Translations under genes and position numbers: made by a program
In this document: in pieces, positions 98 through 29,972 of the stretch
How positions within the stretch are numbered: position 1 is the stretch's first letter
How the letters are laid out: every line of letters starts with the position of its first letter
From: Geobacter sulfurreducens PCA
GTDB lineage: Bacteria; Desulfobacterota; Desulfuromonadia; Geobacterales; Geobacteraceae
Length of the DNA: 32,000 nt
NCBI RefSeq assembly: GCF_000007985.2
Contig: NC_002939.5
Coordinates: 3,180,001 to 3,212,000 of the forward strand
Direction of reading: 5' to 3'
Notes under the pieces: model-generated
Seen by the model: the letters and a program-made list of their open reading frames with translations, nothing else
Databases searched by the model: none
Told to the model about the DNA's origin: nothing

Positions 98-835
98 ATG
101 CTGAATCGCACCACAAGAAAGATCGCCCTGGTTACCGGCCTGTCCCTGGCTCTTGCCCTTCCGTCGCTGTCATGGGCAGATTTTGCCGCCGGGCAGCAGG
201 CATTCCGGAACGGCGACTATGAGACGGCGTTGCGGGAGTACAGGGAGGACGGGGGCGCCCAGGCCTGTTACCGGATCGGAACCCTCTACGACAACGGGTT
301 CGGGGTCCCCGAAAACAAGCAGGAGGCCCTGAAGTGGTACCACAAGGCGGCAGATCTCGGCCTGGACCAGGCACAGCACCGGATCGGAGAAATGTACGAC
401 AACGGGCGCGGCGTCGAAGAGAACCCGGTCACCGCCCTGAGCTGGTATCTGAAGGCTGCCGAGCAGGGAATGGCGATCGCCCAGTTCAAGGTGGGCGACA
501 TGTATTACACCGGAAAGGGGGTCAAACAGGACGTGGCGCTGGGGGTCAAATGGCTGCAGCAGGCGGCCAAGATGGGAAACATCAGGGCCCAGTACGAAAT
601 AGCGACCATGTACGAGACGGGCAGGGAGCTGAAAAAGGACATCTCCGAGGCGGCGAAGTGGTATCTCCGGGCAGCGGAGCAGGGGCACAGCAGGGCCCAG
701 TACACCATTGCGCTCCTTTTCCTCAAGGGCGAAGGCGTCAGGCAGGATCGGGCGGAAGCCGTGAAATGGCTGCGCAAGGCCGCGGAAGGCGGGCACACCA
801 AAGCCCAAATGGACCTGGCAAGCCTGAGCCAGTAA
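98..835 (+). CDS. Secreted Sel1-like (SLR) tetratricopeptide repeat protein, 245 aa
   Basis: N-terminal signal peptide (LSLALALPSLSWA/DF). About five full ~36-aa repeats of the Sel1 pattern (AQ..(I/L)G.MY..G.GV..(D/N)...A..WY.KAAEQG). GGAGG SD before an ATG start. Confidence 0.9.
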   Translation: MLNRTTRKIALVTGLSLALALPSLSWADFAAGQQAFRNGDYETALREYREDGGAQACYRIGTLYDNGFGVPENKQEALKWYHKAADLGLDQAQHRIGEMYDNGRGVEENPVTALSWYLKAAEQGMAIAQFKVGDMYYTGKGVKQDVALGVKWLQQAAKMGNIRAQYEIATMYETGRELKKDISEAAKWYLRAAEQGHSRAQYTIALLFLKGEGVRQDRAEAVKWLRKAAEGGHTKAQMDLASLSQ

Positions 836-1446: not shown

Positions 1447-2487
1447 TCAGTAACTGCCGGCCGCCTCCAGCAGCTTCGCGATTCCGTCCATCCCCCTGGC
1501 CCGGGCCACGTCCAGGGCCGACTTTCCGTCAGCGGTCCGGACAGAGACATCCGCCTTGCGCTCCAGCAACGCCCTGACGATTTCCTCGTTACCCTCGGCA
1601 ACGGCAATCAGCAGGGCGGTGACGCCGTGCCTGTTCCGGACAGCAACGTCCGCCCCGGCATCGATCAGGAACCGTGCGATATCAGTCCGGTTTTGAGCCA
1701 GGGCAAACATGAGCGCGGTATCCCCGTCCCTGTGCACCGCATTGATGTCGGCCTTTGCTCCCACCAGGAATTTCACCACCGCCAGGTGGCCGTTCATGGC
1801 GGCCGCCATCAGCGGCGTGACATCCTCGACATTGCTGTTGTTGAGGTAGGCCCCACGCCCTGCCAGGTACCTGACGATCTCCGGATGTCCGTTGTGGGCC
1901 GCGATCCAGAGCGCATTGACGGCCATACTGTTCAGATAGTTCACCCAGGCACCATTGGCAACCAGCAGCTTCACCGTATCCAGGCTCCCCGCCATGGTCG
2001 CCACCATCAGGGGAGAGACCCCGTCAATGGTGCCGCCCTCGGTTCTGTCGACGCTTTCGGTGTAGTTCACATCCGCCCGGGCCCGGATCAGCTTCCGCAC
2101 CCCGGCCGCGTTTCCCGCCATGGCCGCGTCAAAGAGCTCGCCGTTGACGGAGCGTTTCGACGTGCTGCTGACGATCTCGTCCCCCTTGAAGACGATTTCA
2201 TAGAAACCGTCGCGGGTTAAGCCCCGTTCGCGGCAGTTGCGGTAGTCGCCGCGATAGGTGGTGGTCGCGCCCCGCCTGACGATCGAAACCCTTCTGGTCC
2301 CGCCGTCGCCGCAACGCACGGTCTTGCCGCTGTTTCTGCGTACCGTGTCGTGCCCCCCCAGATCGACGATCATGTCCGTCATGAGCTTCGTGGTCGCTTC
2401 CTGCTCGTATTCATAGGCACGGACATCCGCGGGGAGGCCCAGCGCCACCGCGGCACCGGCGGTCGCCAGCACTAGTCTCGTTATCAT
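1447..2487 (-). CDS. Ankyrin-repeat protein with N-terminal signal peptide (346 aa)
   Basis: Six to seven ANK repeats (e.g. GVTALLIAVAEGNEEIVRALLERKADVSVRT; GDTALMFALAQNRTDIARFLIDAGADV). Start placed at Met62 of the 407-aa ORF (ATG at 2487): GGAGAAGGGA SD, then MITRLVLATAGAAVALGLPADVRA. The longer form would overlap the small ORF and hairpin at 2571-2686. Confidence 0.85.
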   Translation of the reverse strand: MITRLVLATAGAAVALGLPADVRAYEYEQEATTKLMTDMIVDLGGHDTVRRNSGKTVRCGDGGTRRVSIVRRGATTTYRGDYRNCRERGLTRDGFYEIVFKGDEIVSSTSKRSVNGELFDAAMAGNAAGVRKLIRARADVNYTESVDRTEGGTIDGVSPLMVATMAGSLDTVKLLVANGAWVNYLNSMAVNALWIAAHNGHPEIVRYLAGRGAYLNNSNVEDVTPLMAAAMNGHLAVVKFLVGAKADINAVHRDGDTALMFALAQNRTDIARFLIDAGADVAVRNRHGVTALLIAVAEGNEEIVRALLERKADVSVRTADGKSALDVARARGMDGIAKLLEAAGSY

Positions 2488-2570
2488 TCCCTTCTCCTGA
2501 ATCGCGCCGCGTGGGGCCGCAGCCGCAGCGCCCTCTCCCGGCCCGCCGCCCCCATGCTGCTGCAAACAAA

Positions 2571-2602
2571 GAGAGGTGGGGCGCCCTGCAGCCTCACCTC
2601 TC
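2571..2602 (-). terminator. Rho-independent terminator/attenuator-like hairpin after small ORF B
   Basis: Minus strand: GAGAGGTG-aGGC-tgcagggc-GCC-c-CACCTCTC followed by TTTGTTTGC. It begins 21 nt after the TAG of the 20-codon ORF. Confidence 0.6.
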
Positions 2603-2623: not shown

Positions 2624-2686
2624 CTAACAGGGATGCACGTTGGCGGAGCCGACGATCCGCGGTTTGACATAGCTGCGCTTTTTCAT
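2624..2686 (-). CDS. Small ORF B, 20 aa: MKKRSYVKPRIVGSANVHPC (unlisted; paralog of 26591-26653)
   Basis: ATG AAA AAG CGC AGC TAT GTC AAA CCG CGG ATC GTC GGC TCC GCC AAC GTG CAT CCC TGT TAG, translated by hand. GAAAGGA SD-like element 9 nt upstream. 15/20 residues identical to ORF A, with many synonymous codon differences. Followed by a hairpin. Confidence 0.7.
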   Translation of the reverse strand: MKKRSYVKPRIVGSANVHPC

Positions 2687-2738: not shown

Positions 2739-5700
2739 CTACCACGGTGACTTCGTATTCCACAACTGCCCGTCCTGCGAGTAGGTCGAGCCGCCGGCGG
2801 TGGCGCTCTGGTGGCAGAGGGTCTGGCTGTTTGTGGTTATGCTGGTAGATTGAGTGGCCTTGCCGAAGAACCACTTGCCCGCAGTGCCCAAGGGCTGGTC
2901 TCCCGTACCGCCGCCCCCCTGCGGGAAGCGACCCACACCCGCCCCCTTGGATCCGCTCTGGGATGCTGGGCCGGTCATGCTGCCGCCGGAGGCCGCCCGG
3001 CCGCGGTGCTTCACGTCGAGGCAGTTGGTCACCAGCAGGCGCGGCAGCTTGGCGTTGTGCGGCGTGTGGCACTTGGAGCAGGTAAAGGCGTGGACCTTGT
3101 TGTTGGCATTGCCCCCGCTGGCGGTCGCCCATCCCTTGACCGTGTTGTGGACCCGCCGCATGGTCTTCCAGTTCGAGGTGGCCGGCGCTGCCGTGTTGTT
3201 GAGGTCGGCCTGGGCGTGACAGCCGGTGCAGAGTCCGGCGAACTGGGCATCGGTGGTACCCTGCATGGTACTCGGTGTCTGGCTGGATGCGTTGTTGGGG
3301 AAGGTCCACTGGCTGCGTGTCGCTGCTGCGGCAATCCCCATGCTGTTCTGGTCGATCCGGTAGCCCGGCGTGCTGCCGACGTTCATGGCACTTCTCTTTT
3401 TGCCGCCGCCGCGGGCTTCGGTTTTGCTGGCCGGCGCCGCATCCTGCTTGTACGGCGAGGTGACCCAGGTCCCCTTGAGGAGGGGTACGGCATAGGCCTG
3501 GTTGGCTCCCAGGGACGGGCTCACGCCGTGGGGGTCGTGGCACGGCGTGCAGAGGCCGTTGATGGGCTTGGCGGCGGTGGTGGTCAGGCTGGAGGATGCG
3601 CCGAAGTGCCCGCCCTTGTTGTCGGGGTTCAATGCCTTGTAGGCATAGGTCTGGGTGTTGGCGAAGGTGCCGCTGCCGAAGTACGGCGTATCGTGGTAGC
3701 CGTAGATGGCCTGGGTGGAGCCGAAGGTCCCGCCGCTGGCCGTCGGACCGTACCCCCAGGGAGCGGTTGCGCCGGCGCTGGCGGTATTGTGGCAGTCGAA
3801 GCAGAGGGCCGCACCCGGGTTGTAGGCGTTCTTGTTGGGCTCGACGGCATCGCCCCCCGCATACGGCGTGTAGTCGGCGGTGTAGCCGCCGATGCCGTTG
3901 CTGGTTGCCTTGAGGATACCGCCCATGTTGCGGCCGGTGGCGCTGGAGTAGCTGCTCATGATGCCGGTGGCGCTGGTGCCGTGGGAGTTGTGGCAGTCAT
4001 AGCAGAGCACGTTGACCGTGCCGCTGGTATTGGCATAGACCTCGCCGGTGGTGCTGTTCCCGACGGTCCAGCCCCGCTGGTTCAGGTCTGCGCGGCCGTG
4101 GGCCGAATAGGCCTTGGTGAGGCTCTTGGCTACCGTGTTGTTGCCGGTGACCTTGGCCCACGTGGTGGTAGTGGCAACGCTGTACCGCTCGGCAATGCTC
4201 TTGCCGTCCCATGCGTACTGCGTCGGCGTCATGCCGTCGCCGAAGGGCTGGCTGGCCGCGTTGGTGGCATTGTGGCAGCCGAGGCAGTTGCTGTTGAGCT
4301 TGGCAAGCTCCGTCCGGGTGCCGTTGGAGGTATAGGCGGTGCCGGTGCTCCCCTCGGTGTAGGCTACCGGTCTTGAGGTAGTGGTCCGGATGACCAGGTT
4401 GACCGGCTGGCCGGCCGTTCTGGTGTGATAGGTCGTATTGGCGGTGCCGTTTGCGTTGGCCTCCCAGTGGCACTGGTAGCAGACCGTGTTGCTGATCTGC
4501 ACGCCCTGCACGTGGTGCGACTCGCCGCCGAACTGCGGGATCACCGCGGCGCGGGTGTTCACCTCGCCACTGTGGCAGCCGATGCAGGTGGGCTTGTGGG
4601 TGCCGCCGTCATAGGTGCCGGTGCTCGGGACGCCCCAGGTGGGTCCGGCCACCGCCGTGGTGTCGTGGCAGAGGATGCTGAAGCACTTCTTGGCACCGCT
4701 GTCGTAAGTGGCCGTCACGCCCACCACCGTAGAGTTGAAGACCACGTCGATATCGCCGTTCACGTGCTTGGGATTGCCGGAACCGGAACCCAGGTGGCAG
4801 ATGAAGCAGTCGATGCCGTAGCCGCCGTTGGCGGAGCTGGCGGAATGCTTCTGGTGGCTGTCGGTGAAGGCCGAGGTCTGGTTCTTGTGGCAGCTGCCGC
4901 AGTTCATGGGCGCGCCGCCCCAGACCGGCAGCGGGCTGGCGTAGTTGCCCCTGCCGTCGCTGTGGCAGTAGACGGCGCAAGTGCCGAAGGCGGTGCTCGG
5001 CGCCAGGCCGTTGGTCGCGCCGCTGGCACCGGCAGTGCCGTTGCCGGCGGCCGGGGTGTACTGCGGGTTGGCGACCTTCTGGTTCAGGCGTTGGGCCGTG
5101 CTGTAGAACGCCCATTCCACCTTGCCGTCCACGTGGTAGTTGTTCTCCTTGACGCCGTGGCAGTTGGAGCAGCCGAGACGCGGCTTGCCAAAGGCGGTGC
5201 TCACGTGGGCGTCATGGGACCCGGTGGCATGGTAGGTGTCGGCGGTCACGCCGTGGCAGGTGCCGCACGCGGCCTGGGACGAACCGCCTTCCCAGTTGGG
5301 CCTGGTGTTGCTCCCACCCTGCAGCGCCGCCCGGGTGGACGTTCCGCCGCCGTGGCAGTAGAGGTTCGCACAGGTGTTGAGGGTATCCGCGTTGGTCGTC
5401 CGGCGGACCACCGTTCCCGCATTGGTGGATTTGTAGACGATTCTCGGCGAGTAGTTGTCGGACAGGGTCGAATAGCCGTAGAACGTGCCGCTGGTGACCC
5501 TGCCGCCATAGGCGTTGAAGCCCATCTCCATGTCGTAGCTCGGCATCTCCTGCGAGTACTGGTAGTGGCAGACGTTGCAATCCTTGCCGATGCTCGGATT
5601 GAGGGCGTGGGCCTGGTGCGCGCCCACCATGCCGGGGGTAAGGGCTCCCACGGCCGGGATGGTCATGCCGGCCTCGTCGACGGGCGGCCGGCCGTGACAG

Positions 5701-8700
5701 GTATTGCAACTGTCCACAACGCCGTTGACGTGCAGTTTCGGGTCCTTGAAGGCGTATCCCGTGTTGTCCACATGCTTGTGGCAGAGGATGCACTGGTTGG
5801 CGACGAACGGCCTGTTGTTGTTGTCGTCCCAGTGGGTGTAGCCGGGCAGCGGCGCTGCCGGCGGGAAAGCATGGCACTTGACGCAGTCGTTGGTGCCCAC
5901 GCCGGTGAGATAGGGAGAATTCCAGACGGCGGGCGCCGGCGAGCCGAGGGAAGCGCCGTCTGTGACGGCAGAGCCGTAGGGGCCGGCCCCCACGTTGGAG
6001 GCCATGCCGCCGCCGTGGCACCAGACGTTGCTGCACTCCCTGCTCGCATAGTTGTAGGACGGCTGGTGCTCTGCGCTGGAATAGCCGTTCTGCACGCCGC
6101 TGCCGGCAATGGCGCCGAAGATGACCTCGGCCGGCAGGGCCGAATCGATGTGGCCAGGGGTGTAGGGGCCCGTGGGCTTCAGGTGGCAGCCGGAGCAGTC
6201 GATCCTGGCCGAATACCTGAAGGGCATGGAGGTGATGTGCTGGAAGTGCGCTCCCACGTAGGCATCGGTCTTGGACGTGGTGCTGCCGGGTCCGGAGGTG
6301 CTGTAGAACCCTGCGGCGGACGGGCTGGTGGTGTGGCACTTCTCGCAGAGCGGAACGGCGTGGTTCGGCGGTTCCCAGGCGAGGGTCCGGCGGGCGCCGT
6401 GGCAGTTGCCGTTGTAGCAGGTGCCGTAGGGGGCGGAACCGGGCGTCTTGGCGGAACTGTAGGAATAGTGGGTATTCTCCCCAAGGCCCGTGAACATGAA
6501 GTTGATCTTGCTGTTGCCATGGTTGAGGGAGTTGGTGCTCCCGCCGTTGGCGTGACAGATGCGGCAGTCGAAGCCGGTCACCTCTTCTCCGGCGTGCTGG
6601 GGATGGCCGCCGGTGGTGTTGGGATCGGCCTGGTGGCAACTGTTGCAGTTGGTGGAGCCGCCCCAGACCGGCGTTGCAAAGCTGGTGGGACCGCCGGTGC
6701 CGTTGTTGGACTGGACATCACTGTGGCAGTACAGGTTGGAGCAGGTGCCGTAGCTGCCCGGGGCGGTGGGGGCCTTGGCGCCGGTGGAGCCTGCCGCGAC
6801 TCCGGCGTACCTGGCAGTAGTGCTGTTGGCGGCGAGGTCCCATTCCACGTTGCCGTTGATGTGGGACGCGCTGGTGGAATAGTTGCGAAAGCCGTGGCAC
6901 TTGGCGCAGGCGATGCCGTTGCCGTAGCCGGGCTCGTTGCCGGCATGCTTGGCATGGCTCCCCGACGGCGGCGGGACATCTGCCGTGGCGGCATGGCACG
7001 AGCCGCACCCCACCTGGGTGATGCCGGTCCAGGCCGGTTCGGTGTTGTAGCCGCCGTTGCCCTCCCAGCCGTGGCAATAGACGCTGCAGGTCATGATGGT
7101 ATTGGGGGCCTGCTGGATGGTGGTGCCCGCGGCGCCGGACCAGGAATAGTCGTTGCCCGGCGCGAGGGTGCGTATCGTGCCCGTGGTGACGCTCCCCACG
7201 AAGCCGGGGAAGGTTCCGTTAGCGACGCTGAAACCCAGGTTCAACTGCATGTCGGGGGTCGCCGTGACCAGGTGGTTGGCGTTGCTGTGACAGGCCGTAC
7301 ATGTCACCTGCCGCGCATTGTGCTTCCCATGGGAGCCGGCATTGCTGGCAAAGGGGAACAGGACCTCGGTCGGCGGCACCACCAGCATCTCGTAGCTGGT
7401 GGGCGGATTGCCGTGGCAGTCGTCGCAGGACTGGCCGGTGGCTTTCGTCTTGAAGCCGATGCTGTGGGGATGGCACTTCAGGCAGTCGCCGTTGTTGTTA
7501 TGATCCTTCCAGGCAACCTTGGCGGCGCTGTACTGGTGGAACCGGGCCCGGTGATGGCAGACCTCGCACACGTTGGTGGATGCGGTGCCGCTCCTCCTGT
7601 CATTGCCGAACACGCCCGCGACATTCGCATTGATGGCCGTGGAGATCGTGTCGAAGAGGACCGGACGGGGTCCGGTGGGCGTGGTTATCACATTCCTGAC
7701 CTGCTTGATGTTGGTCGCGTCGGGAGAATGACACGTACTGCAGGTAAAATTGACACCCCACTTGCCGTACTTCTGGGTACCGAGCTGCAGGCTGCTGTGC
7801 ATCATGGTGCCATACTTGTTGACCACGACCTCGATGGGATCGGGGCACACGGTTTCCCCGCCGCTGCTCTTGACCACTTTCACGTGGAAGGTCTTGACCG
7901 CCCCCTCGATGGCTCCCGGCTTGGCCGTGATGTCCAGGTGCGTGTATTTCGAGCCGTTGTTGGTCGAAATGACAAAATCGTTGGCCTCGAAGGCGGCAAC
8001 GGTGAAGTTGCTGTCGTCGATGTTCGTGCCTTGGGTGACGAGGCTGAAGGTGGTGGGTCCGCAGACCCCGGTATCCTTGTTCTTGATGCCGATGGTCAGC
8101 TTGACGGTGGTGCCCGCCTTGACATAGGACGCCGTGGGGTTGACGATCAGCTCCGGCAGCTCGTTGCACCGGTTCTTGATGGCCGCCGTTGCGCTGGCGG
8201 TGACGCCGGCGTTGATATTGTTGACCGAGTCGATGACACAGAGGCGATAACCGTAGTTGACCCCTTCGTCCAGCCCCTTGTCGACCACGGAGGTGGCGGG
8301 GCCCTGGTAGGCCAGGAAGGTCTTGGCGTTATCCACCGTGCAGGTACGCGGGGCCGGCGCGTTGCCCAGGCCGCGCACCAGCTTGTAGGTGACCGGCTGG
8401 CCGCCGGCATCGGTGGTGCCGAGCCAGCTCAGGTTGACTTCGGCCCGGTCGGTGTCGTTGTGGTAGGTCCCGGTGACGGCCGTGAGGGACGATTCGTTGG
8501 GAGGCTCTTCGTCCATCAGGATGGTGGCGCTGCCGGCATCGTTCACCAGCAGGGCGTTCGTCGTCCTGGAATGGGTCACCGACGTTACCCGGCCCTTGAC
8601 GGTGAAGGTGATCCCCTGGTTCCCCTTGGGGGTGATGGCCACGTAGTAGTCGGTGGGGATCTGGGTGGCGGCCAGGCCGGTGGTGGGGACCTGCCAGTTG

Positions 8701-11150
8701 TCGGCCATGGTGGGGGCGGTCAGGTGCCCCAGGGACGTGCCCGCGGCAGTGACGATATCCACCCGTCCCACGTAGTCGGAGATGACCTTGCCGGCCGGCA
8801 GCCCGCTGGTGGTCGACAGGGTGACCGTGACGTTGCGGATCGTGTCGTTGACGCCGCCGTTGGTCCTGAGTCCGAAGGCATCCACTTTGGTGGGGCCGGC
8901 GTTCCAGGGAATGATCGCGTTGGGGGGCTCGGCGGCGATGAAATCGCTCAGGGTGGTCGTGGGCAGAATGGTCAGCGTGGCCGACGTACTGTCGTTGTCC
9001 ACCCCGATCCCCCCGGTGGAGGCTACCGTCAGGTCGTCGACAACGGCGGTGAGGATCACGTTGGTGTTGGGGGCATCGCCGATGTTCACCACCACCAGGT
9101 AGCGCCTGACCGCGGTGCTGATCGCCAGGTTGAGCCCGGAGATGGTCGCGGTGTTGCCGGAAATCGTGGCGGTGGAGCCGAGCAGGGTGTCGCTGCCGTC
9201 AAGGGTGCCGATGGTGCCGGCATCGGCGTACAGCTTCACCTCTTTGATATTGGTGCCGGTGAACGTGGCGTTCCCCTTGATGGTGACGGCCGTGACCGTC
9301 TTGGCCTTGGCCGCAGTCAGGGTGAAGCTGTCGATGACCTTATTGACGTCCGAGGCATAGACAGTGGCATTGGGAATGGCCGAGCCGTTGCCCACGTCCA
9401 CGTTTTCGTTCTCGGCCGCAGTCTCCTGCACCATAAGCTGGGCATTGACCGAGCTGCCGAGACCGATGCGCATGCCGGCGGTGACGCCGATCTGGATGCC
9501 GAGCCGGGCGCCGGCCGGCACATTGCTGAAATCCTGTCCGGCCAGGGAGGTGGTGATGGTCTGGCTGATCGAGCTGCCGGTGGTGTAGCGGGAGGTTATG
9601 GGGGCGTTGACCCTGACCCCGTCGCTGGTCACGTAGAAGAGCTGCAGCGTCACCGTGCCGCCGCCGAAGGGGGTATAGACCCGGTAGACAAAGGATCCGC
9701 CCTTGATGGTTTTCATGACCGAATGATATCCGGCCCCGGCGAAGTAGAGCCTGATGAAATCGGGCTGGGCGGTGGTGGCGGAGTATCCCCGCCCGGCAAC
9801 GCTGGCGCAGGTGTGGCTCGGGTAATTGAGCAGGCCCACGAGGGGGAAGCCTGACCCGGTGGTGTTGCTGGTGATGCAGGCGGTGTCGGTGGCGGAGGGG
9901 CCGCCCGTTTCGGAAATCCCCGCCAGGGTCGTGCCCTCGTCCCAGTCCGCGGCATAGATCTTCGTGACCGCGGTGCCGCCGTACTGGATGGTGGGGGTTG
10001 AGGAGGAGGTGCTCGTAACGTTCACCACGCCGCCGGCCGCGCCGGTGACCGCGAAGTAGGAGCTGTTGGCCACCCGGGCTCCCACGGTGGTGCCGTAGGT
10101 GGAGTTCCGGGCGATACTATAGACGATGAAATAGCGCTGCGGCGTCGTGGTAATGGTCTGCGGGGTTGCCAGCTCATAGGCCTGGCCGGTGAGCTGGGTA
10201 AAGGTGTAGGGCCCGCCGACCTGGGTGTCGGTCTTCTGGAACAACCCGTCGCCGTTGGCATCCTTGAAGATGGAGAAGGTGACGTCGCCCGGCTCGTCCT
10301 CGTTCACGTAGACGCTGGTGTTGGTGCCGATCTTGTCGAGCTTGCCGCCGCTCCAGGTGGCTCCGCCGCTCACGTTGGAGTACAGGTCCATCTTGAGCAT
10401 GGGGATAGCGCCGTCCCCCTGGGTCACCGACGCGAGCTGGCCGCTGTAGTAGTCGGACAGGTTGTTGACCGTCACCGAGTTGGCCACATAGGGGGCCTCG
10501 GTCACGGTGAAATAGGAGTAGTTGGTGCTGTTGCCCCAGTAGAAGCGCGCCGACGACGAGGTGCTCGCCATCCGGCAGGTGACGACCACCTTGAGCCGGT
10601 AGCCGGCCTCGACATCCTTCGGCTGGGGGTTGGTAAACGTCAGCTCCAGCGGCGTCTGGACCGCCGGGTGGGCCTCTTTCTCGTCCGAGGTCCAGAGCAG
10701 CACGCCGTTATTGGCGGTCCCCTTCGGATTGTAGGCGTACACGTACGCCTTCCAGTACATGTTGTTGGTGGTGCCGTTGCGATCCCGCATCCCGATGGTG
10801 ACCGACGGGGCGGTGAGGGTCTGCTTGGTGGCATAGACCGGCCCGTAGGCCCTGATCATGTTCTGCTCGGCGGTGCTGACGGAGGCGGTAACGTACCGGG
10901 AGGTGGTATAGACACCCGGTTTCATGGAAATTTTGCCGTCGCGGCTGGTCCTGGTCGTGGTGTAGCCGTCGGCGCCCAGGTTTACGGCTGCAGAATCAAG
11001 GGTGAAGTAATAGGTATTGGTGGCCGTATCGCCGATCAGGGGCCGGAACATGGCCTGGTACAGGAAACAGGCCATCACCAGCATTACGGTAATGCCGATT
11101 TTAGTCCGTATCCCCATTCCCCTGATTTTCCTGACGAGCGCTGTTTCCAT
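2739..11150 (-). CDS. Giant multihaem c-type cytochrome, 2803 aa (about 27 CxxCH + 7 Cx3-4CH) with a ~1136-aa haem-free N-terminal region
   Basis: Uninterrupted 8.4-kb ORF. ATG at 11150 preceded by GAGGGA. N-terminal hydrophobic anchor (IGITVMLVMACFLYQAMF). The first haem motif, CSTCH, is encoded at 7728-7742 (residue ~1137). Repeated CxxCH..CxxCH..CxxxxCH units (CSNLYCHSD, CANLYCHGGG, CAVYCHSDG) match the Geobacter CxxxxCH...CXXCH motif family. Confidence 0.95.
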   Translation of the reverse strand: METALVRKIRGMGIRTKIGITVMLVMACFLYQAMFRPLIGDTATNTYYFTLDSAAVNLGADGYTTTRTSRDGKISMKPGVYTTSRYVTASVSTAEQNMIRAYGPVYATKQTLTAPSVTIGMRDRNGTTNNMYWKAYVYAYNPKGTANNGVLLWTSDEKEAHPAVQTPLELTFTNPQPKDVEAGYRLKVVVTCRMASTSSSARFYWGNSTNYSYFTVTEAPYVANSVTVNNLSDYYSGQLASVTQGDGAIPMLKMDLYSNVSGGATWSGGKLDKIGTNTSVYVNEDEPGDVTFSIFKDANGDGLFQKTDTQVGGPYTFTQLTGQAYELATPQTITTTPQRYFIVYSIARNSTYGTTVGARVANSSYFAVTGAAGGVVNVTSTSSSTPTIQYGGTAVTKIYAADWDEGTTLAGISETGGPSATDTACITSNTTGSGFPLVGLLNYPSHTCASVAGRGYSATTAQPDFIRLYFAGAGYHSVMKTIKGGSFVYRVYTPFGGGTVTLQLFYVTSDGVRVNAPITSRYTTGSSISQTITTSLAGQDFSNVPAGARLGIQIGVTAGMRIGLGSSVNAQLMVQETAAENENVDVGNGSAIPNATVYASDVNKVIDSFTLTAAKAKTVTAVTIKGNATFTGTNIKEVKLYADAGTIGTLDGSDTLLGSTATISGNTATISGLNLAISTAVRRYLVVVNIGDAPNTNVILTAVVDDLTVASTGGIGVDNDSTSATLTILPTTTLSDFIAAEPPNAIIPWNAGPTKVDAFGLRTNGGVNDTIRNVTVTLSTTSGLPAGKVISDYVGRVDIVTAAGTSLGHLTAPTMADNWQVPTTGLAATQIPTDYYVAITPKGNQGITFTVKGRVTSVTHSRTTNALLVNDAGSATILMDEEPPNESSLTAVTGTYHNDTDRAEVNLSWLGTTDAGGQPVTYKLVRGLGNAPAPRTCTVDNAKTFLAYQGPATSVVDKGLDEGVNYGYRLCVIDSVNNINAGVTASATAAIKNRCNELPELIVNPTASYVKAGTTVKLTIGIKNKDTGVCGPTTFSLVTQGTNIDDSNFTVAAFEANDFVISTNNGSKYTHLDITAKPGAIEGAVKTFHVKVVKSSGGETVCPDPIEVVVNKYGTMMHSSLQLGTQKYGKWGVNFTCSTCHSPDATNIKQVRNVITTPTGPRPVLFDTISTAINANVAGVFGNDRRSGTASTNVCEVCHHRARFHQYSAAKVAWKDHNNNGDCLKCHPHSIGFKTKATGQSCDDCHGNPPTSYEMLVVPPTEVLFPFASNAGSHGKHNARQVTCTACHSNANHLVTATPDMQLNLGFSVANGTFPGFVGSVTTGTIRTLAPGNDYSWSGAAGTTIQQAPNTIMTCSVYCHGWEGNGGYNTEPAWTGITQVGCGSCHAATADVPPPSGSHAKHAGNEPGYGNGIACAKCHGFRNYSTSASHINGNVEWDLAANSTTARYAGVAAGSTGAKAPTAPGSYGTCSNLYCHSDVQSNNGTGGPTSFATPVWGGSTNCNSCHQADPNTTGGHPQHAGEEVTGFDCRICHANGGSTNSLNHGNSKINFMFTGLGENTHYSYSSAKTPGSAPYGTCYNGNCHGARRTLAWEPPNHAVPLCEKCHTTSPSAAGFYSTSGPGSTTSKTDAYVGAHFQHITSMPFRYSARIDCSGCHLKPTGPYTPGHIDSALPAEVIFGAIAGSGVQNGYSSAEHQPSYNYASRECSNVWCHGGGMASNVGAGPYGSAVTDGASLGSPAPAVWNSPYLTGVGTNDCVKCHAFPPAAPLPGYTHWDDNNNRPFVANQCILCHKHVDNTGYAFKDPKLHVNGVVDSCNTCHGRPPVDEAGMTIPAVGALTPGMVGAHQAHALNPSIGKDCNVCHYQYSQEMPSYDMEMGFNAYGGRVTSGTFYGYSTLSDNYSPRIVYKSTNAGTVVRRTTNADTLNTCANLYCHGGGTSTRAALQGGSNTRPNWEGGSSQAACGTCHGVTADTYHATGSHDAHVSTAFGKPRLGCSNCHGVKENNYHVDGKVEWAFYSTAQRLNQKVANPQYTPAAGNGTAGASGATNGLAPSTAFGTCAVYCHSDGRGNYASPLPVWGGAPMNCGSCHKNQTSAFTDSHQKHSASSANGGYGIDCFICHLGSGSGNPKHVNGDIDVVFNSTVVGVTATYDSGAKKCFSILCHDTTAVAGPTWGVPSTGTYDGGTHKPTCIGCHSGEVNTRAAVIPQFGGESHHVQGVQISNTVCYQCHWEANANGTANTTYHTRTAGQPVNLVIRTTTSRPVAYTEGSTGTAYTSNGTRTELAKLNSNCLGCHNATNAASQPFGDGMTPTQYAWDGKSIAERYSVATTTTWAKVTGNNTVAKSLTKAYSAHGRADLNQRGWTVGNSTTGEVYANTSGTVNVLCYDCHNSHGTSATGIMSSYSSATGRNMGGILKATSNGIGGYTADYTPYAGGDAVEPNKNAYNPGAALCFDCHNTASAGATAPWGYGPTASGGTFGSTQAIYGYHDTPYFGSGTFANTQTYAYKALNPDNKGGHFGASSSLTTTAAKPINGLCTPCHDPHGVSPSLGANQAYAVPLLKGTWVTSPYKQDAAPASKTEARGGGKKRSAMNVGSTPGYRIDQNSMGIAAAATRSQWTFPNNASSQTPSTMQGTTDAQFAGLCTGCHAQADLNNTAAPATSNWKTMRRVHNTVKGWATASGGNANNKVHAFTCSKCHTPHNAKLPRLLVTNCLDVKHRGRAASGGSMTGPASQSGSKGAGVGRFPQGGGGTGDQPLGTAGKWFFGKATQSTSITTNSQTLCHQSATAGGSTYSQDGQLWNTKSPW

Positions 11151-11194: not shown

Positions 11195-14134
11195 CTACAT
11201 GGCCGAATGGCAACTGACGCACTCGGTAATGCCGTTGTTGTCGGTCCACTTCACGCTCTGGCCGTTGTGGCAGGCGATGTTGGAGCAGGTCTTGGTGCCG
11301 CCGTCCCACATGGTGGCCGTGTCGAGCGCCTGCTTGGCTGAATCGTTGGCACCGGAGACCTTGTAGCCGCCGTTGCGCTTCCAGACGCTGCTGTAGGTGG
11401 CGATGGCGAAGCTTGCCGGCCGCATCTGGGCTTTGGAGATGACGGCCACGGGTTTGAACGCCACATCCACGAGGCCGTTGACGTGCTTCGACCGGTCCGC
11501 GATCGCAGCCCGATTGCCCGACAGGGCACCGACGGCGTTGCCGTCGTAATGGCAGGTCTTGCAGACCGCGTTGTCGTCGTTGCGGGCGGTGGTGACGGTC
11601 TCGTAGTGGCAGATGTTGCAGCTGATGGTGGTGGCGGTGGCTGCATTGCCATGGCTGCTGCTGCCGGTGGTGCCGGCCGTGGCGCGCTTGCCCGGGCTGC
11701 TGTAGATGTTCATGGCGTGGATGCCGATCTGGTGGCCGCCTGCCACGCCGGTGTAGCCGAGGAAACGGTTGTTGTAGTGGGACGAGGACCCGGCAATGGT
11801 GCTGTTGGGCGAGTTGCCGTGACAGGCGGCGCAGCGGTCGCCGGCAAAGCTGCCGCCGTACCAGTCGGGCGTGGCGGCGTAGACCAGGTTTGCGGCGTAG
11901 CCGTTGCTGTGGCAGTAGACCGACGCGCACCTGACCGACGCGCCGGTGGTGCCGGTCAGGCCGCTGCCGGCTGAATTGAGTCCGCTGCCGTTGGTCGCGC
12001 CGTTTTTCGTTTTCAGCCCGCCGGCATTCACATCGTTCTTGCTGAGGGAGAGGTCGATGTGGCCGTCGATGTGGTGCACCGGATCCATCGGATGGCAGTT
12101 GGCGCAGCCGTAGCGATAGGCCGCTCCCACCGGGTGGTTGCCGGTATAGGCATAGAAGGTCGGGATCATCCCTCCCACGTGGATGCCATGGGCGCCTCCC
12201 AACCCGGCGATGGGGTGGCAGGCGTTGCAGTTCTGGGCGGAACCGCCCCAGCGGGGGGTCGCGTAGGCCCTGCCGGTCTGCCGGCCGTTGGAGTGGCAGT
12301 AGACGTTGGTGCAGCGGCGGCTGAGGTCGTTGTAGGACGGGCTGTTGCCGCCCGCGACCGCGGTGTTGAAGGTGACGTTCTTCTGGGTGTTGGCGTGCAG
12401 GGTCGTGCCGGGCACCAGGGAGACGCCGTTCTGGGTGGTGCCGGCGTGGCAGGTGCTGCAGTCGCCGGCCGACCTGACGTGTTTCGGGTTGTGGGAGTTG
12501 AACCAGTTACGGTCGGCAGAGCTGTAGTTGTTGTAGTTGGGCTCGCCGAACCGGCTGACAAAGACCCCGGCCGGGCCGGCGGTGGACGCGCCGTGACAGG
12601 ACGAGCAGCCGTAGGTGGTCGCCGTATCGCTCCAGGGCACCATGGTCCGGTATGCCGGGGAGCGCTGGCCCGAGCTGTGGCAGTAGACATTCGAGCAGGT
12701 GCCGGCGGCGATCGTGCCGGCCCGCTGTCCGGAGTAATCCTTGAAGCGGTTTACGTGCCTGGCCTTATCGGCAATGGTCAGGTTCCCGGAAACGGTAGGG
12801 GCGTGGCACTCCACGCAGCCGATACCCGTGCCGAGCCCGCCGTTGTAGCTTGCATCCACGTGTTTGCGGTGGTTGTTTGACGCAATGACGTTGCCGCTCC
12901 CCTGCTGACCGCCATGGCAGCCGGTGCAGCCTGTCGGGAAGTCGGCCGCCCCCCAGGTCACGGCGTAGTCGTTGAACGGCGGCGTGGTGGTGGCGCCGTC
13001 GGAGTGGCAGTAGATATTCCGGCAGGTGCCGTAGGCGGTGCCCACGTCCTTGGCCACATGCCCGGCGGCGCCGCCGTAGGTTCCGGCGCTGCCGATGGCG
13101 GCCTCGAAGGAGATATCGGCCTTCTTGTTCACGTGCTGCGTCGGATCGCCGATCTGGCGGGAATTCGTCACTGTTGCGCCATGGCACTGGACACAACCGA
13201 TCTGCGCCGCGGCATTCACCCCCACGTGCGCCCCGTGGGACCCGGTCTGCATGGGAGAGCCGGAGTCGGCATCCCCCCGGTGACAGCCGAGACAACTGGT
13301 GCCGAGCGTGCCTGCCCAGTCGGGCGACTGATTGGGAGGGTCGTAGCTGCCGGCCTTGGTGCCGGGGCTGTGGCAGTAGAGGTTGGTGCACGCGCCGGTG
13401 CGGGACGGGTTGTAGAGATAGAGGGGATAGCTCACATCGCCGCTGAAGGAGCCGCCGGTGTTGGGAAATGCCGTGAACTGGATCACCAGCCCCCGCCGGC
13501 CGGCGCTCGTGGCATGGGAGAACGCCCCCTTGCCCGGCTTGGCCGCATGGTCGGGGTGACACTTGACGCAGGCCGTGGTCACATCCCCGTAGTACTGGGC
13601 ATGCTTTGCGTGGCGAGCGTCCGCCGGAGGGGCGCTGTGGCAGGTGGCGCATTTCTGCTGGATCGTCTTGCCGCCGTCCAGGTAGAGCGGCGTGGCCCCG
13701 TTCTGGGGGGTCGTCTTCTCGAAGTGGCAGTTGACGTTGGAGCAGGTGCCGAAGCTCGGGCTCGCCGTGCGGGTGAAGGACGTAAGGTTCCTGTAACGGG
13801 CCGTGAGCCGCGAGTTATTGATAGTGGTCACAAAGTCCACGTTGTTGTTGCGGTGGTTGTAGGTGGCGGGCATCTTGTGGCAGATGGCGCAGTTGGGGGT
13901 TCCGGCGCTAAGCCAGGCATGGGTGTCGTGGCTTCCCATGAACCGGCCGGTGGAGATGTTGCGATAGGGGGCATCAACCGGCGGCATGCCGTGGCAGCCG
14001 GAACAGTCGGTAATGGTGCCGGCTGCGGCCGTACCGGCGAGCGCGAAGAGCGCAGCCGCACATGCCAGCGCCGACAGGACTGCCGCACCGGCCAGTGCAC
14101 AGCCCCTGTGCCATTTCATATACACATTAATCAT
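11195..14134 (-). CDS. Multihaem c-type cytochrome, 979 aa (16 CxxCH + 7 CxxxxCH)
   Basis: The ORF track gives 11195..14218. I prefer the ATG at 14134 (GGCGGAGGG SD 5 nt upstream), giving MINVYMKWHRGCALAGAAVLSALACAAALFALAGTAAAG as signal peptide; ATG at 14119 is an alternative. Seven [CxxCH, CxxCH, CxxxxCH] triads read directly. Confidence 0.93.
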   Translation of the reverse strand: MINVYMKWHRGCALAGAAVLSALACAAALFALAGTAAAGTITDCSGCHGMPPVDAPYRNISTGRFMGSHDTHAWLSAGTPNCAICHKMPATYNHRNNNVDFVTTINNSRLTARYRNLTSFTRTASPSFGTCSNVNCHFEKTTPQNGATPLYLDGGKTIQQKCATCHSAPPADARHAKHAQYYGDVTTACVKCHPDHAAKPGKGAFSHATSAGRRGLVIQFTAFPNTGGSFSGDVSYPLYLYNPSRTGACTNLYCHSPGTKAGSYDPPNQSPDWAGTLGTSCLGCHRGDADSGSPMQTGSHGAHVGVNAAAQIGCVQCHGATVTNSRQIGDPTQHVNKKADISFEAAIGSAGTYGGAAGHVAKDVGTAYGTCRNIYCHSDGATTTPPFNDYAVTWGAADFPTGCTGCHGGQQGSGNVIASNNHRKHVDASYNGGLGTGIGCVECHAPTVSGNLTIADKARHVNRFKDYSGQRAGTIAAGTCSNVYCHSSGQRSPAYRTMVPWSDTATTYGCSSCHGASTAGPAGVFVSRFGEPNYNNYSSADRNWFNSHNPKHVRSAGDCSTCHAGTTQNGVSLVPGTTLHANTQKNVTFNTAVAGGNSPSYNDLSRRCTNVYCHSNGRQTGRAYATPRWGGSAQNCNACHPIAGLGGAHGIHVGGMIPTFYAYTGNHPVGAAYRYGCANCHPMDPVHHIDGHIDLSLSKNDVNAGGLKTKNGATNGSGLNSAGSGLTGTTGASVRCASVYCHSNGYAANLVYAATPDWYGGSFAGDRCAACHGNSPNSTIAGSSSHYNNRFLGYTGVAGGHQIGIHAMNIYSSPGKRATAGTTGSSSHGNAATATTISCNICHYETVTTARNDDNAVCKTCHYDGNAVGALSGNRAAIADRSKHVNGLVDVAFKPVAVISKAQMRPASFAIATYSSVWKRNGGYKVSGANDSAKQALDTATMWDGGTKTCSNIACHNGQSVKWTDNNGITECVSCHSAM

Positions 14135-14218
14135 GACGACCCTCCGCCTCTTTCCGCAGGAGTACCCGACAACTGACAATTCTTGCAGCCCCTTAACGGC
14201 CCGCTGTCGCCTTATCAC

Positions 14219-14528
14219 CGACCAGCAAGCATAACAAATATTAATTATTACAGACTAATTCAGCGTGAAATCGGTTAACCGTTTGATATTTCTAACCCTA
14301 CCGTTTTAATACAATATGAAATGTCAAAATCACTAACTGTTATTTCACTGCGTCAATAAGCAAAGCAAAAACCGAGCCTTTTATCCCGGAGATCCCTGTG
14401 AAATGGCATATACACTCATGTGGTGAAAAGTCAGTCGCAGACAGTCATTGTTACATTTGAGAAAAAAAAGGAACAACACCGGAGGGATGCGCCTCAGAAC
14501 ACTACAAAAACACTCAAATAATCGGCTG
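14219..14528 (-). promoter_or_regulatory. AT-rich intergenic region: probable promoter/regulatory region of the 979-aa + 2803-aa cytochrome block
   Basis: Hand count gives 112 G+C in 300 nt (14221-14520), about 37 percent, against clearly GC-rich flanks. It lies between the 3' end of the YedE-like gene and the 5' end of the cytochrome gene. Contains the perfect palindrome CGGTTAACCG (14272-14281) and several TGAAAT/ATTTCA words. No promoter hexamers could be assigned with confidence. Confidence 0.5.
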
Positions 14529-15599
14529 TCAGGCGGTACGGGCCCGCCAGAAAAGGCAGGCGGCGAGAACAGCGGCGAATCCCGCCAGAAGGGCGGCCTT
14601 GCCGGCAAGGGAAACGCCGGCTGCCGTGGCGGCAATGCCCCACGACTGGACCAGGGCGCCGCCGATGAGCATCCCCACCACCACGAGCCCCGCATCGGCG
14701 TCCCCCTCGCCCGCCTTGATGAGCTGGCGGAAGGGGCAGCCGCCGATGAGGACGGAAATCCACCCCACGAGCCCCATGCCGAGGAAGCTCCAGAGGTGCT
14801 CCGGATGGGCGCCGGGCTGGCCGTGGAGACCGGGGTTGAATCTGCCGAAGGCTACGTTGGCGGCCACCGCCGCAGCCAGAAAGGCCACCACACCCCAGAG
14901 GGCCGGGGTCCGTCTGCCCATGATGAACGCATCACGGATGCTGCCGGTTATGCAGAAGCGGCTCCGCTGGGCCATGGCGCCGAGCAGCGCGCCGGCGCCC
15001 AGGGCAAGGGGAACGGGAGCGTGCTGTGCCGCGCTCCCCTGGCCGGAAAAGATGATGAAACCGGGGCGAACGAGAAGAAAGACCAGGAGCAGGAGAAAGA
15101 AGGCCGGGATCAGCGGGCCGCCGTGACCAACGCCCGGTGACGGGTGCCCCGGCTCCACCCCGTTGGCGAGCCCCCGGAGACCGGCCCAGACCCCGGCGAC
15201 CAGCCCCACGACGCCGGCAACGGCGGTCAGGTCGCCGGCAGCCAGGCGCAGGAAGAGCTTGATGGGGCAGCCGATGAAGATGGCACAGCCGACAATGAGG
15301 AACACTCCCGCAACGAGGCGCGGCAGGGGGGCGCCCCCGCCGCGGGAGCGGAACTCGCGAAAGAGCAGTGCGCTGGCCGCGGCGCCGAGCACGAAGCCGA
15401 TCAGTTCAGGCCGCAGGTACTGCATGCGGGGGTTGTCGTGCATCCCCAGGGCCCCGGCGCTGTTCTCCATGAAGCAGGAAACGCAGATTCCCGAGTTCTC
15501 CGGATTACCCCAGACCGCCAGAAGCGCACCGAGGCCGCCGAGGAAAAGCCCCGCCGCCACCACCATCCAGAAATGCCGATCCCGCAGCACTACTCGCAC
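14529..15599 (-). CDS. YedE/YeeE-family membrane protein (putative sulfur/selenium compound transporter)
   Basis: Polytopic and Gly/Ala/Leu-rich. Family-typical motifs GNPENSGICVSCF, RSRFCITGSIRD and GGCPFRQL. The ORF-track start at 15599 is GTG. A GTG at 15590 (TAGTG overlap with the upstream stop, GGGAGG 9 nt upstream) and an ATG at 15566 are alternatives. Confidence 0.75.
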   Translation of the reverse strand: MRVVLRDRHFWMVVAAGLFLGGLGALLAVWGNPENSGICVSCFMENSAGALGMHDNPRMQYLRPELIGFVLGAAASALLFREFRSRGGGAPLPRLVAGVFLIVGCAIFIGCPIKLFLRLAAGDLTAVAGVVGLVAGVWAGLRGLANGVEPGHPSPGVGHGGPLIPAFFLLLLVFLLVRPGFIIFSGQGSAAQHAPVPLALGAGALLGAMAQRSRFCITGSIRDAFIMGRRTPALWGVVAFLAAAVAANVAFGRFNPGLHGQPGAHPEHLWSFLGMGLVGWISVLIGGCPFRQLIKAGEGDADAGLVVVGMLIGGALVQSWGIAATAAGVSLAGKAALLAGFAAVLAACLFWRARTA

Positions 15600-16129
15600 C
15601 CTCCCGCCAGCCGACTCTTCAGGTAGTTGACCTTGCGCAGGGACGCCGCCAGGCTCCGGTTGCCAGGGTTGGCGGCTGCCCGGCCGCCGATGCCCGCCAG
15701 CCCCTCGACCACCAGGCCCTCGATGGCGCGGCGCCGTGACAGGGGGCTCTGTGCGTCCACGTAATCGCCATTGAGCCTGACCCCTTCCTCAAAGGAAGCC
15801 ACGGCCTCGTCCAGTGCCCCCATCTTCCGGAGGATCTCCCCCCTGAGGATGTAGCCGTGGGCCTCGCCGGGGTAGCTTCGGATCAGCTCGTTCAGCCTCA
15901 GGAGGGCTTCCTGGTCGTTGCCGGCCGTGCGCAACTCCTCCACCGGCCCATAGAGCCTGGCGATCAGCTCGACGCGGGCGCGATAGGCCATCTCACGCTC
16001 CACGGCCTTGCCGAGGCCCGCGGCCCTGCCTGCTCCTGCCCCGTGATTCGTTGCAAGAACACCGGCCAGAGCCGCAATGACGACGGCCAGGAGCAGCCAG
16101 GTTATTTTGTCGAAGGTGTCGGTGAACAT
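15590..16129 (-). CDS. Membrane-anchored TPR-repeat protein (179 aa from ATG at 16129)
   Basis: Met36 of the 214-aa ORF gives MFTDTFDKITWLLLAVVIAALAGVLA as a TM anchor. TPR-like helices follow (DQEALLRLNELIRSYPGEAHGYILRGEILRKMGALDEAVASFEEGVRLNGDY). The start lies 22 nt after the upstream stop. Confidence 0.6.
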   Translation of the reverse strand: MFTDTFDKITWLLLAVVIAALAGVLATNHGAGAGRAAGLGKAVEREMAYRARVELIARLYGPVEELRTAGNDQEALLRLNELIRSYPGEAHGYILRGEILRKMGALDEAVASFEEGVRLNGDYVDAQSPLSRRRAIEGLVVEGLAGIGGRAAANPGNRSLAASLRKVNYLKSRLAGGCE

Positions 16130-16151
16130 TGGAAAAACCAGCCTTTTCAGG

Positions 16152-17057: not shown

Positions 17058-17094
17058 TACATGGAGTCCTGTCGTTGTCCGGGCGGTTAACCCG

Positions 17095-17964: not shown

Positions 17965-17968
17965 AGAA

Positions 17969-19090: not shown

Positions 19091-19394
19091 AGCGGATAAA
19101 TCCCTTGACGGCCAGTTCGTCCAGGAATGCCTGGACATCTTCCCGCAGCACCGCCTCGTCCACCTCGAACTGGGGGAGCAGCTCCGCCACGATGCCCTCC
19201 GGGGTCCGGCCGTCACAGAGCTTCCAGATTTCAGTGCCGAGATAGTTGAGGGAGAGCATGGTCCCACCGGAGAACAGGACCGAGGTGCCGGTCTCCTCCA
19301 CCGCCTCGCCCCGGTCCAGGGCCTCCAGGACCCGGGCCAGGGCATCGGCCTCCTCGCGCCACATGACGTCGGGGTTGCGATGAATCGTCTTCAC
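19080..19394 (-). CDS. PqqD-family peptide chaperone (RiPP recognition element)
   Basis: Typical PqqD-family pattern: HRNPDVMWREE...LNYLGTEIWKLCDGRTPEGIVAELLPQFEVDEAVLREDVQAFLDELAVKGFI. I prefer the GTG at 19394 (AAGGAAGG SD 8 nt upstream). The ORF-track start, a GTG at 19418, is the alternative. Confidence 0.8.
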   Translation of the reverse strand: MKTIHRNPDVMWREEADALARVLEALDRGEAVEETGTSVLFSGGTMLSLNYLGTEIWKLCDGRTPEGIVAELLPQFEVDEAVLREDVQAFLDELAVKGFIRYAE

Positions 19395-19438
19395 GTTTCT
19401 TACCTTCCTTGCTCTCACAATCCGTTGTTGTGAATGCC

Positions 19439-26518: not shown

Positions 26519-26533
26519 AGTCTCACAAAAAGC

Positions 26534-26571
26534 AAAAGAGGTGCCGACGAATACGGTTCGGCACCTCTTTT
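26534..26571 (-). terminator. Strong rho-independent terminator/attenuator hairpin after small ORF A
   Basis: Perfect 14-bp stem AAAAGAGGTGCCGA / TCGGCACCTCTTTT (26534-26547 pairs with 26558-26571) and a 10-nt loop. On the minus strand it is followed by GCTTTTTGTG. It starts 19 nt after the TGA of ORF A and ends 15 nt before the ATG of the beta-helix gene. Confidence 0.75.
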
Positions 26572-26590
26572 AGGGATTGTGATCGGTTTC

Positions 26591-29936: not shown

Positions 29937-29972
29937 GGTTGGCTCCCGAATAAACTAAACAAGACAGTACAA

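Follow-up and report, generated by a model that had tools for sequence, protein, structure and literature searches.

The 8.4-kb open reading frame at 2739..11150 of a Geobacter sulfurreducens window is omcN, encoding a 34-motif multihaem cytochrome with a long haem-free N-terminal half

A 32,000-nucleotide (nt) stretch of Geobacter sulfurreducens PCA (contig NC_002939.5, positions 3,180,001 to 3,212,000; hereafter the window) carries an 8.4-kb open reading frame (ORF) whose product joins a long haem-free region to a chain of haem motifs. The locus raises the question of which gene this is and where such a protein would carry its electrons. Judged by its sequence and setting, the ORF is omcN (GSU2898) of G. 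sulfurreducens. We made this assignment because the protein belongs to a 90% cluster spanning G. sulfurreducens, G. anodireducens and G. soli, because it is 98.8% identical (2769/2803 residues) to G. soli KIE43258.1, because it carries 34 haem motifs, and because it has a GSU2899-like neighbour and an OmcO-like gene about 14 genes away. Each of these agrees with published descriptions of OmcN, namely 98.8% identity between G. soli SE37_11760 and the G. sulfurreducens protein (PMC6013743), 34 haems (bioRxiv 10.1101/2022.05.22.492868) and adjacency to the cytochrome GSU2899 (PMC13194489). The accession spacing from omcN to omcO/omcP in KN400 and G. soli (13-15) likewise agrees with the locus-tag spacing (~14 genes; PMC6013743). 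GSU2899 itself was assigned by its position beside omcN. Proteins of the 90% cluster are named 'CxxxxCH/CxxCH domain c-type cytochrome', and their length in its other complete genomes is 2798-2804 amino acids (aa). In one G. anodireducens genome the orthologue is split into 1967 and 837 aa by a frameshift or a sequencing error. A first-pass annotation had called proteins of this kind rare and essentially uncharacterised, which is too strong: omcN has been named, deleted and found expressed, the G. metallireducens homologue Gmet_0581 has been deleted, and cytochromes with up to 87 haem motifs have been catalogued. The finding is accurate but already known, omcN being a named gene that was knocked out before and that belongs with the giant Geobacter cytochromes already recognised as a class. 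The present analysis adds a domain map, a conserved leader, a conserved gene pair and a downstream micro-ORF.

The ORF is single and unbroken, as the first-pass annotation had it, running from an ATG through 2803 codons with no internal stop. Its in-frame G+C content at third codon positions (GC3) is 0.88, matching the neighbour genes. A 1809-aa ORF on the opposite strand (4425..9854 (+)), with a G/A/V/R-rich product, was rejected as a shadow rather than a gene, its first-position value (GC1, 0.88) mirroring the GC3 of omcN. That high-GC DNA yields long spurious ORFs of this sort, together with the split gene in the G. anodireducens assembly, is what speaks for regarding the omcN ORF as an artefact or decaying gene, either a chimera made in assembly or a pseudogene whose frame GC-rich codon bias has kept free of stops. 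We give this reading practically no credence. The exact 2803-aa protein was found by exact-sequence look-up on 74 public contigs from many independent assemblies, the longest of 3,828,539 bp, and the ORF is therefore not an assembly artefact; 83 blocks of public assemblies index the same protein, and two independent assemblies agree with the window at every position across 21 kb. The in-frame GC3, strong matches to family hidden Markov models (HMMs) and the invariance of 34/34 haem motifs in orthologues down to 46% identity argue in the same direction. The first-pass annotation had also allowed for absence of the protein or transcript; both have been detected (PMC6013743, PMC7894505), and with these results the artefact or pseudogene reading is already refuted.

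All haem motifs lie in the C-terminal half (residues 1137-2803). The earlier hand count of 27 CxxCH and 7 Cx3-4CH motifs was reproduced exactly, as 27 CxxCH, 2 Cx3CH and 5 Cx4CH, a total of 34 compared with 0.2-0.4 on average and 4 at most after shuffling of residues. The junction motif YGKWG..FTCSTCH...NIK (family form YGxWG..TCxTCH...NIK), found in 23 relatives, leads into a c7-like head with five haem motifs. Further on, TIGR01904 matches seven stretches (164.1 bits, cut-off 27) and PF09698 matches as well (55 bits, cut-off 21.7); each of the seven TIGR01904 repeats opens with Cx3-4CH, followed by CxxCH 24-50 residues on. The protein ends in ...QLWNTKSPW, a terminus that recurs in metagenome loci. 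These family matches place the C-terminal half, with its 34 motifs, among the multihaem cytochromes of the CxxxxCH/CxxCH class. Mostly bis-His ligation would be affordable, since the half contains 79 His and only 20 Met. No significant match was obtained when residues 1137-2803 were compared by phmmer with all PDB chains at E up to 1 (best E = 0.026). Near the C-terminus we also observed an invariant unpaired 'CH' (Cys2779-His2780, 2811..2816 (-)) with no partner Cys 3-6 residues upstream, as well as an invariant Cys2710; these residues could form a disulfide, provide a single-Cys 35th haem site or act as haem ligands.

The N-terminal half, in contrast, is free of haem motifs throughout residues 1-1136, the first motif standing at residue 1137. 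The other features that had been read from this half also stood: it is enriched in T, G, A, V, S and N (T 14.5%, G 10.1%), the string TYKLVRGLGNAP...VNYGYRLCVIDSVNN lies at residues 921-977, and there is one hydrophobic window (residues 12-36). Stretches described as Ig/FN3/CARDB-like correspond to a profile match to fibronectin type III (FN3) and to predicted Ig, MG, jelly-roll or CBM-type folds. An AlphaFold2 model of the whole half (mean predicted local distance difference test score, pLDDT, 63) contains one helix (14-35) and thereafter beta strands only, arranged in seven domains (D1-D7, Table 1) with low-confidence linkers between them; re-prediction of residues 38-600 with 18 sequences raised the mean pLDDT to 85. 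Foldseek matched the whole half to Ig/FN3/MG strings (titin, myosin-binding protein, complement C5, alpha-2-macroglobulin, cytokine receptors and the adhesin FdeC) and residues 38-600 to galactose-binding, discoidin and CBM jelly-rolls (E = 1e-3 to 4e-6, 9-16% identity), including the C-terminal domain of cocaine esterase, neuropilin, a MAM domain and a CBM22 tandem. The modelled folds are of kinds typical of binding modules and surface proteins, as in adhesins, but generic. For the FN3 domain, a profile built from five family members matched solved structures over residues 874-970 (1wf5, E = 4e-6; 1k85, E = 1.2e-3), and Pfam gave a sub-threshold match to the FN3-like PF16656. Nothing in residues 1-1136 rose above threshold in Pfam (whole protein and seven N-terminal pieces, E up to 5) or in NCBIfam. 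Self-BLAST of this half at E up to 0.01 found no internal repeats, so it is not a simple tandem array.

D3 is the best conserved of the N-terminal domains. D2 contains an invariant WTGGKLDKIG motif in the orthologue alignment and a DANGDG loop that resembles a calcium site; its module (ranges 216-400) recurs in other surface proteins among the HMMER relatives, and the D4 module (ranges 584-766) is repeated in many relatives. Three Cys pairs of the beta domains (425/448, 937/971 and 995/1030) are invariant in ten orthologues and, as residues in an alignment, fit disulfides of an exported protein.

Is this two-part architecture old or recent? An exhaustive HMMER search with the N-terminal half as query returned 257 relatives, and 185 proteins were fetched; a word-indexed protein search was weak on this T/S/G-rich query and gave 3 matches, or 6 with a profile query. 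Among the HMMER relatives are colinear giants, 2335-3155 aa long and bearing 34-51 haem motifs. Ten full-length relatives, all in Geobacter or Desulfuromonadales metagenome-assembled genomes (MAGs), came from a scan that took one genome for each species. Nine of the ten are complete, and among those nine a simple count gave 34 motifs in six and 33 in one. Across ten orthologues (46-80% identity), each of the 34 haem motifs has an invariant first Cys and an invariant His. The two halves are similarly conserved (N-terminal 46-80%, haem 50-77% identity), and this equal conservation led us to reject a reading of the N-terminal half as a hypervariable surface region. Because the orthologues keep the architecture, the motifs and both halves equally, we regard OmcN as a stable, vertically inherited design and not as a recent chimera or a hypervariable antigen. 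The word chimeric, used in the first-pass annotation, therefore holds for the two-part architecture and fails where it implies a recent or odd fusion, since at least ten Geobacter/Desulfuromonadales genomes have the same arrangement, nine of them with the same 34 motifs.

The extreme N-terminus is conserved beyond the orthologues. A leader motif, MGKxIxKKIxGMSxxxK followed by a hydrophobic helix and then YQGWYKP, is common to 36 of the 185 fetched proteins, whose ectodomains differ and whose haem numbers range from 9 to 51; they include shorter cytochromes (9-15 haems) with other beta regions. Ordinary signal peptides are far less conserved than this leader, which may serve as a dedicated signal for anchoring or sorting. 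NCBIfam matched no family to the leader alone. In G. sulfurreducens OmcN, LVMAC with Cys28 (11067..11069 (-)) fits the permissive lipobox [LVI][ASTVIM][GAS]C after a basic n-region and a hydrophobic stretch, and the proteome annotation reads 'lipoprotein cytochrome c (OmcN)' (PMC7894505). Since the lipobox-like Cys of both OmcN and its upstream partner is limited to G. sulfurreducens and its closest relative (L003, an uncultured Geobacter MAG) and is absent from more distant orthologues, lipid anchoring may be specific to this subclade, a pattern that suggests a clade-specific switch. Family-wide, an uncleaved anchor is just as possible as a dedicated sorting step. The L003 locus also encodes, at 259-6102 (+), a paralogous, leader-bearing cytochrome of 1947 aa and 23 haems just upstream of the GSU2899-like/OmcN-like pair, so leader-bearing cytochromes cluster.

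The gene pair itself is conserved. As had been noticed, a 23-haem cytochrome gene lies 44 nt upstream of omcN: the ORF at 11195..14218 (-) has 23 motifs and its stop falls 44 nt before the omcN ATG, which is preceded by the Shine-Dalgarno sequence GAGGGA. A gene for a 14-21-haem cytochrome directly precedes the OmcN-like ORF in 8/10 loci (L003-L008, L010, L012). On the other side of omcN we found a 20-codon ORF, and by position the GSU2899-like gene, omcN and this ORF form one unit with a terminator after it. In 6/7 orthologous loci the peptide MKKRSYVKPRIVGSANVHPC occurs nearly unchanged, encoded 40-80 nt past the OmcN-like gene on its downstream side; copies stand in L003-L008. In the DNA alignment AAGGAG is conserved and changes fall mostly at third codon positions, and the terminator hairpin after the small ORF is conserved with compensatory changes in 7 loci; because of these three features the small ORF behaves as a translated gene. 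Scanning metagenome contigs with a degenerate pattern added 23 copies (L014-L036), at least 14 of which follow an ORF with the OmcN C-terminus. Three metagenome loci with a full or near-full ORF before the peptide have 34 motifs and at least 2770 aa. In 2 metagenome loci it is instead a B12-binding radical SAM gene that the peptide follows, at a distance of 152 nt; this gene is 80% identical to one (L001:25993-27504) that lies 7.5 kb downstream of omcN in G. sulfurreducens. NCBI and UniRef already contain this exact peptide, so someone has annotated it; Pfam and NCBIfam hold no family model for it. A partnership with OmcN and a role as radical-SAM substrate are both possible. A more ambitious proposal, which we consider doubtful, would join a GSU2899-type cytochrome, an OmcN core and the peptide MKKRxYxKPRxVGSAxVHPC, as obligate partner or ligand or as a radical-SAM-modified product, into a three-gene module; the leader (MGKxIxKKIxGMS..K, helix, YQGWYKP) would be the sorting signal taking giant beta-stalked cytochromes to the surface, where CBM-like jelly-rolls would bind partner cells or polymers.

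Where, then, would OmcN work? On balance we lean towards an exported protein that serves as an outer-surface electron conduit made of a single polypeptide. OmcN would be exported by Sec, and its haems attached in the periplasm, perhaps by a nearby-encoded ResB/CcsA-type system; ResB-like and ResB/CcsA genes lie near omcN. The G. sulfurreducens protein would probably be lipid-anchored at Cys28 and reach the outer surface or lie beyond it. Its haems, closely spaced and mostly bis-His, could then give a continuous conduit of tens of nanometres, fed by GSU2899 or by other periplasmic or surface cytochromes and discharging to external acceptors or partner cells, while the beta domains would act as stalk and surface-binding module, possibly for polysaccharide or a partner cell envelope. 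The role would be redundant with that of other outer-surface cytochromes, which would account for the lack of a deletion phenotype; single deletions probably miss it for this reason. Several published observations bear on this picture. OmcN is listed in G. sulfurreducens proteomes (PMC7894505, PMC8691401) and called extracellular by PSORTb (PMC13194489). The G. soli orthologue responds to ferrihydrite with 18-fold more transcript and 2.5-fold more protein (PMC6013743). In G. metallireducens an Ig-like domain was described in Gmet_0581, and loss of the gene caused a delay only in co-culture with Methanosarcina subterranea (PMC10989804). Across 84 Desulfuromonadia genomes, cytochromes reach 87 haem motifs with a local peak near 35, all predicted to be extracellular, and related high-haem Geobacter cytochromes are predicted to be long single-chain wires (PMC11492766).

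Against a surface conduit stand a number of observations. Reduction of soluble and insoluble acceptors was unaffected by omcN deletion, according to the Aklujkar 2013 work as cited in PMC6013743 and in bioRxiv 10.1101/2022.05.22.492868. A periplasmic location was predicted for the G. soli orthologue (PMC6013743), and we found no fractionation or surface-labelling data for OmcN in the literature. Cys28 is missing in 8/10 orthologues, and the family-wide leader lacks a consistent AxA site and resembles a signal anchor that stays uncleaved. Among the scanned window ORFs there was no porin or secretion gene. The jelly-roll matches are to generic folds. As for the adhesin-like or mineral-contacting role that the first-pass annotation suggested and that OmcN may have, the published hematite-binding tripeptide [ST]P[ST] shows no enrichment in the N-terminal half (1 observed, 2.3 expected).

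Some of these points would be met by a protein held at the inner membrane by an uncleaved signal anchor, with beta domains spanning the periplasm and 34 haems that store electrons or relay them from inner-membrane quinol oxidases to outer-membrane conduits. Such a periplasmic reservoir or bridge, the main rival, fits a leader (basic n-region, helix, YQGW.KP) kept family-wide without a lipobox Cys or a regular AxA, as well as the periplasmic prediction in G. soli and the lack of porin or secretion genes among the scanned ORFs. A missing phenotype on external acceptors (bioRxiv 10.1101/2022.05.22.492868) would fit buffering, and electron storage is one of the two rationales offered for very haem-rich cytochromes (PMC11492766). 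We nevertheless hold it to be rather unlikely, given the PSORTb call (PMC13194489), the lipobox-like LVMAC in G. sulfurreducens OmcN and likewise in its operon partner, strings of FN3/Ig/CBM-like domains typical of surface proteins, a predicted length of related high-haem cytochromes that exceeds the width of the periplasm (PMC11492766), and an effect of Gmet_0581 deletion on an interspecies, and thus external, process (PMC10989804).

Two further readings carry far less weight. OmcN might be a filament subunit that polymerises head-to-tail like OmcS, OmcE and OmcZ, its beta domains decorating the filament; Geobacter does make cytochrome filaments (discussed in PMC11492766), and the invariant unpaired 'CH' and free Cys near the C-terminus could serve inter-subunit contacts. 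Known filament subunits, however, are small, with 4-8 haems, a ~313-kDa chain with an N-terminal anchor is an unlikely building block, the haem half has no significant PDB match, and polymerisation and long single chains have been contrasted as alternative solutions (PMC11492766), all of which makes a polymerising OmcN very improbable. We are equally sceptical of a catalytic reductase, in which a C-terminal paired-CXXCH site would act on a metal, metalloid or nitrogen oxyanion, fed by the remaining haems, while the beta domains bind substrate. It would draw on matches to octahaem nitrite reductase (E = 0.062) and NrfB (E ~1e-3, far below cut-off), both very weak, and on selenium-related genes of the window (YedE and a PhnD-like protein with a weak match to a selenate-binding family), but all these matches are far below family thresholds, OmcN has no CxxCK or other catalytic haem motif, and no phenotype or activity has been reported.

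Beyond omcN, the window holds several other gene groups. Upstream of the GSU2899-like gene, a sigma-70 consensus scan found none; terminator-like sites were no commoner than in shuffles, and Rfam at gathering thresholds had no match in the window. Directly upstream of the cytochrome operon, at 14529..17252 (-), are a YedE-family selenium transporter (401 bits) and the PhnD-like binding protein, beside a GeoRSP radical SAM/SPASM system at 17095..19759 (-) (TIGR04303, 668 bits; TIGR04304, 512 bits), where PqqD-family and cupin genes were also called. A second cytochrome cluster (24017..30812 (-)) includes an 833-aa NosD-like beta-helix protein and a CarboxypepD_reg-domain protein and, at 26796..30812 (-), a 27-haem cytochrome of 1046 aa and a 279-aa paired-CXXCH cytochrome; the 27-haem protein (26796..29936), which has MtrC/MtrF-like domains, is probably OmcO. 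The downstream flank encodes a secreted ankyrin-repeat protein (1447..2487 (-), 346 aa by public call) and a Sel1-repeat protein (98..835 (+)). Ankyrin and Sel1 repeats are unusual in bacteria, and these two neighbours are not conserved in orthologous loci. Coordinates of the omcN unit and its parts are collected in Table 1.

Table 1. Features of the omcN unit and its surroundings, in window coordinates.
Feature	Position	Strand	Description
Terminator-like hairpin after yedE	14372-14389		
AT-rich intergenic region	14135..14528	(-)	394 nt, upstream of the GSU2899-like gene; presumed promoter region
GSU2899-like partner	11195..14134	(-)	979 aa by public gene call; 23-haem CxxxxCH/CxxCH cytochrome
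omcN (GSU2898) coding sequence	2739..11150	(-)	2803 aa + stop; ~292 kDa apoprotein, ~313 kDa with 34 haems
Leader, residues 1-37	11040..11150	(-)	Basic n-region (METALVRKIRGMGIRTK), hydrophobic helix, YQ..F.P motif
D1, beta jelly-roll/sandwich	10497..11024	(-)	Residues ~43-218; AlphaFold2, Foldseek (jelly-roll/galactose-binding-like/CBM)
D2, Ig-like beta-sandwich	9975..10478	(-)	Residues ~225-392; AlphaFold2
D3, jelly-roll	9411..9968	(-)	Residues ~395-580; AlphaFold2 and Foldseek; invariant Cys425/Cys448
D4, beta-sandwich repeat module	9018..9365	(-)	Residues ~596-711; AlphaFold2
D5, beta-sandwich	8568..8915	(-)	Residues ~746-861; AlphaFold2 and Foldseek
D6, fibronectin type III	8181..8492	(-)	Residues ~887-990; profile match; invariant Cys937/Cys971
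D7, Ig- or CARDB-like beta-sandwich	7812..8168	(-)	Residues ~995-1113; AlphaFold2; invariant Cys995/Cys1030
Junction motif and c7-like head	7251..7769	(-)	Haem motifs 1-5; PF14522 Cytochrome_C7 at 1190-1246, 57.9 bits
Seven CxxxxCH/CxxCH (TIGR01904/PF09698) repeats	4551..7133	(-)	Haem motifs 6-27; HMM
C-terminal region	2742..4550	(-)	7 widely spaced CxxCH, paired-CXXCH type; PF09699, E = 3e-13
20-codon ORF MKKRSYVKPRIVGSANVHPC	2624..2686	(-)	52 nt after the omcN stop; own AAGGAG Shine-Dalgarno
Intrinsic-terminator-like hairpin and T-run	2563..2602	(-)	Closes the GSU2899-omcN-small ORF unit

OmcN is among the largest cytochromes of the best-studied electricity-producing bacterium and, to our knowledge, has never been purified or localised. 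The domain map, with seven beta domains (two of binding-module type) and 34 invariant haem sites, shows cut points for expression. If single-chain wires of tens of nanometres prove true, they would offer another route to long-range electron transfer besides polymerised cytochrome filaments. Work on omcN should take in its operon partner and the small gene downstream of it, and the small ORF and the family-specific leader are the items worth carrying forward.

Among known systems, the TIGR01904/PF09698 cytochromes (OmcG, OmcH, OmcA (GSU2884), GSU2887, OmcO and GSU2899) share with OmcN the same repeated module of Cx3-4CH followed by CxxCH; this class as a whole is predicted to form long single-chain haem wires (PMC11492766). 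OmcN goes beyond the shared module in having a haem-free beta region of 1100 residues, a special leader and a paired-CXXCH tail, whereas the GSU2899-like and 27-haem cytochromes of the window have neither a long haem-free region nor the leader. The Shewanella proteins MtrC, OmcA and UndA, like OmcN in the reading that we favour, are surface multihaem proteins with beta and haem domains; they are lipid-anchored, with proposed mineral contact. They differ in having split beta-barrels interleaved with pentahaem domains, 10-11 haems rather than 34, and docking into a porin-cytochrome complex. The MtrC/MtrF domain II/IV model PF22113 stayed below threshold on OmcN (17 bits versus 30, E = 0.0044), and neither the window nor the flanks of locus L001 showed a porin-like or MtrA-like gene that would indicate an MtrAB-like linkage. 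The OmcS, OmcE and OmcZ nanowires share with OmcN the proposed extracellular long-range transfer along stacked haems; they are polymers of small subunits, whereas the length of OmcN would come from one polypeptide, and the phmmer comparison of its haem half with PDB chains revealed no similarity to them. Five relatives (P0002, P0003, P0013, P0016 and P0018) place haem-free beta repeats before a multihaem region as OmcN does, and several of the relatives fused to S-layer/Ig/FN3 domains carry the OmcN leader and junction motif, with different beta repeats and only 9-16 haems. A similar fusion of multihaem regions with S-layer/Ig/FN3 domains is found in ANME-2d and Gram-positive cell-wall cytochromes.

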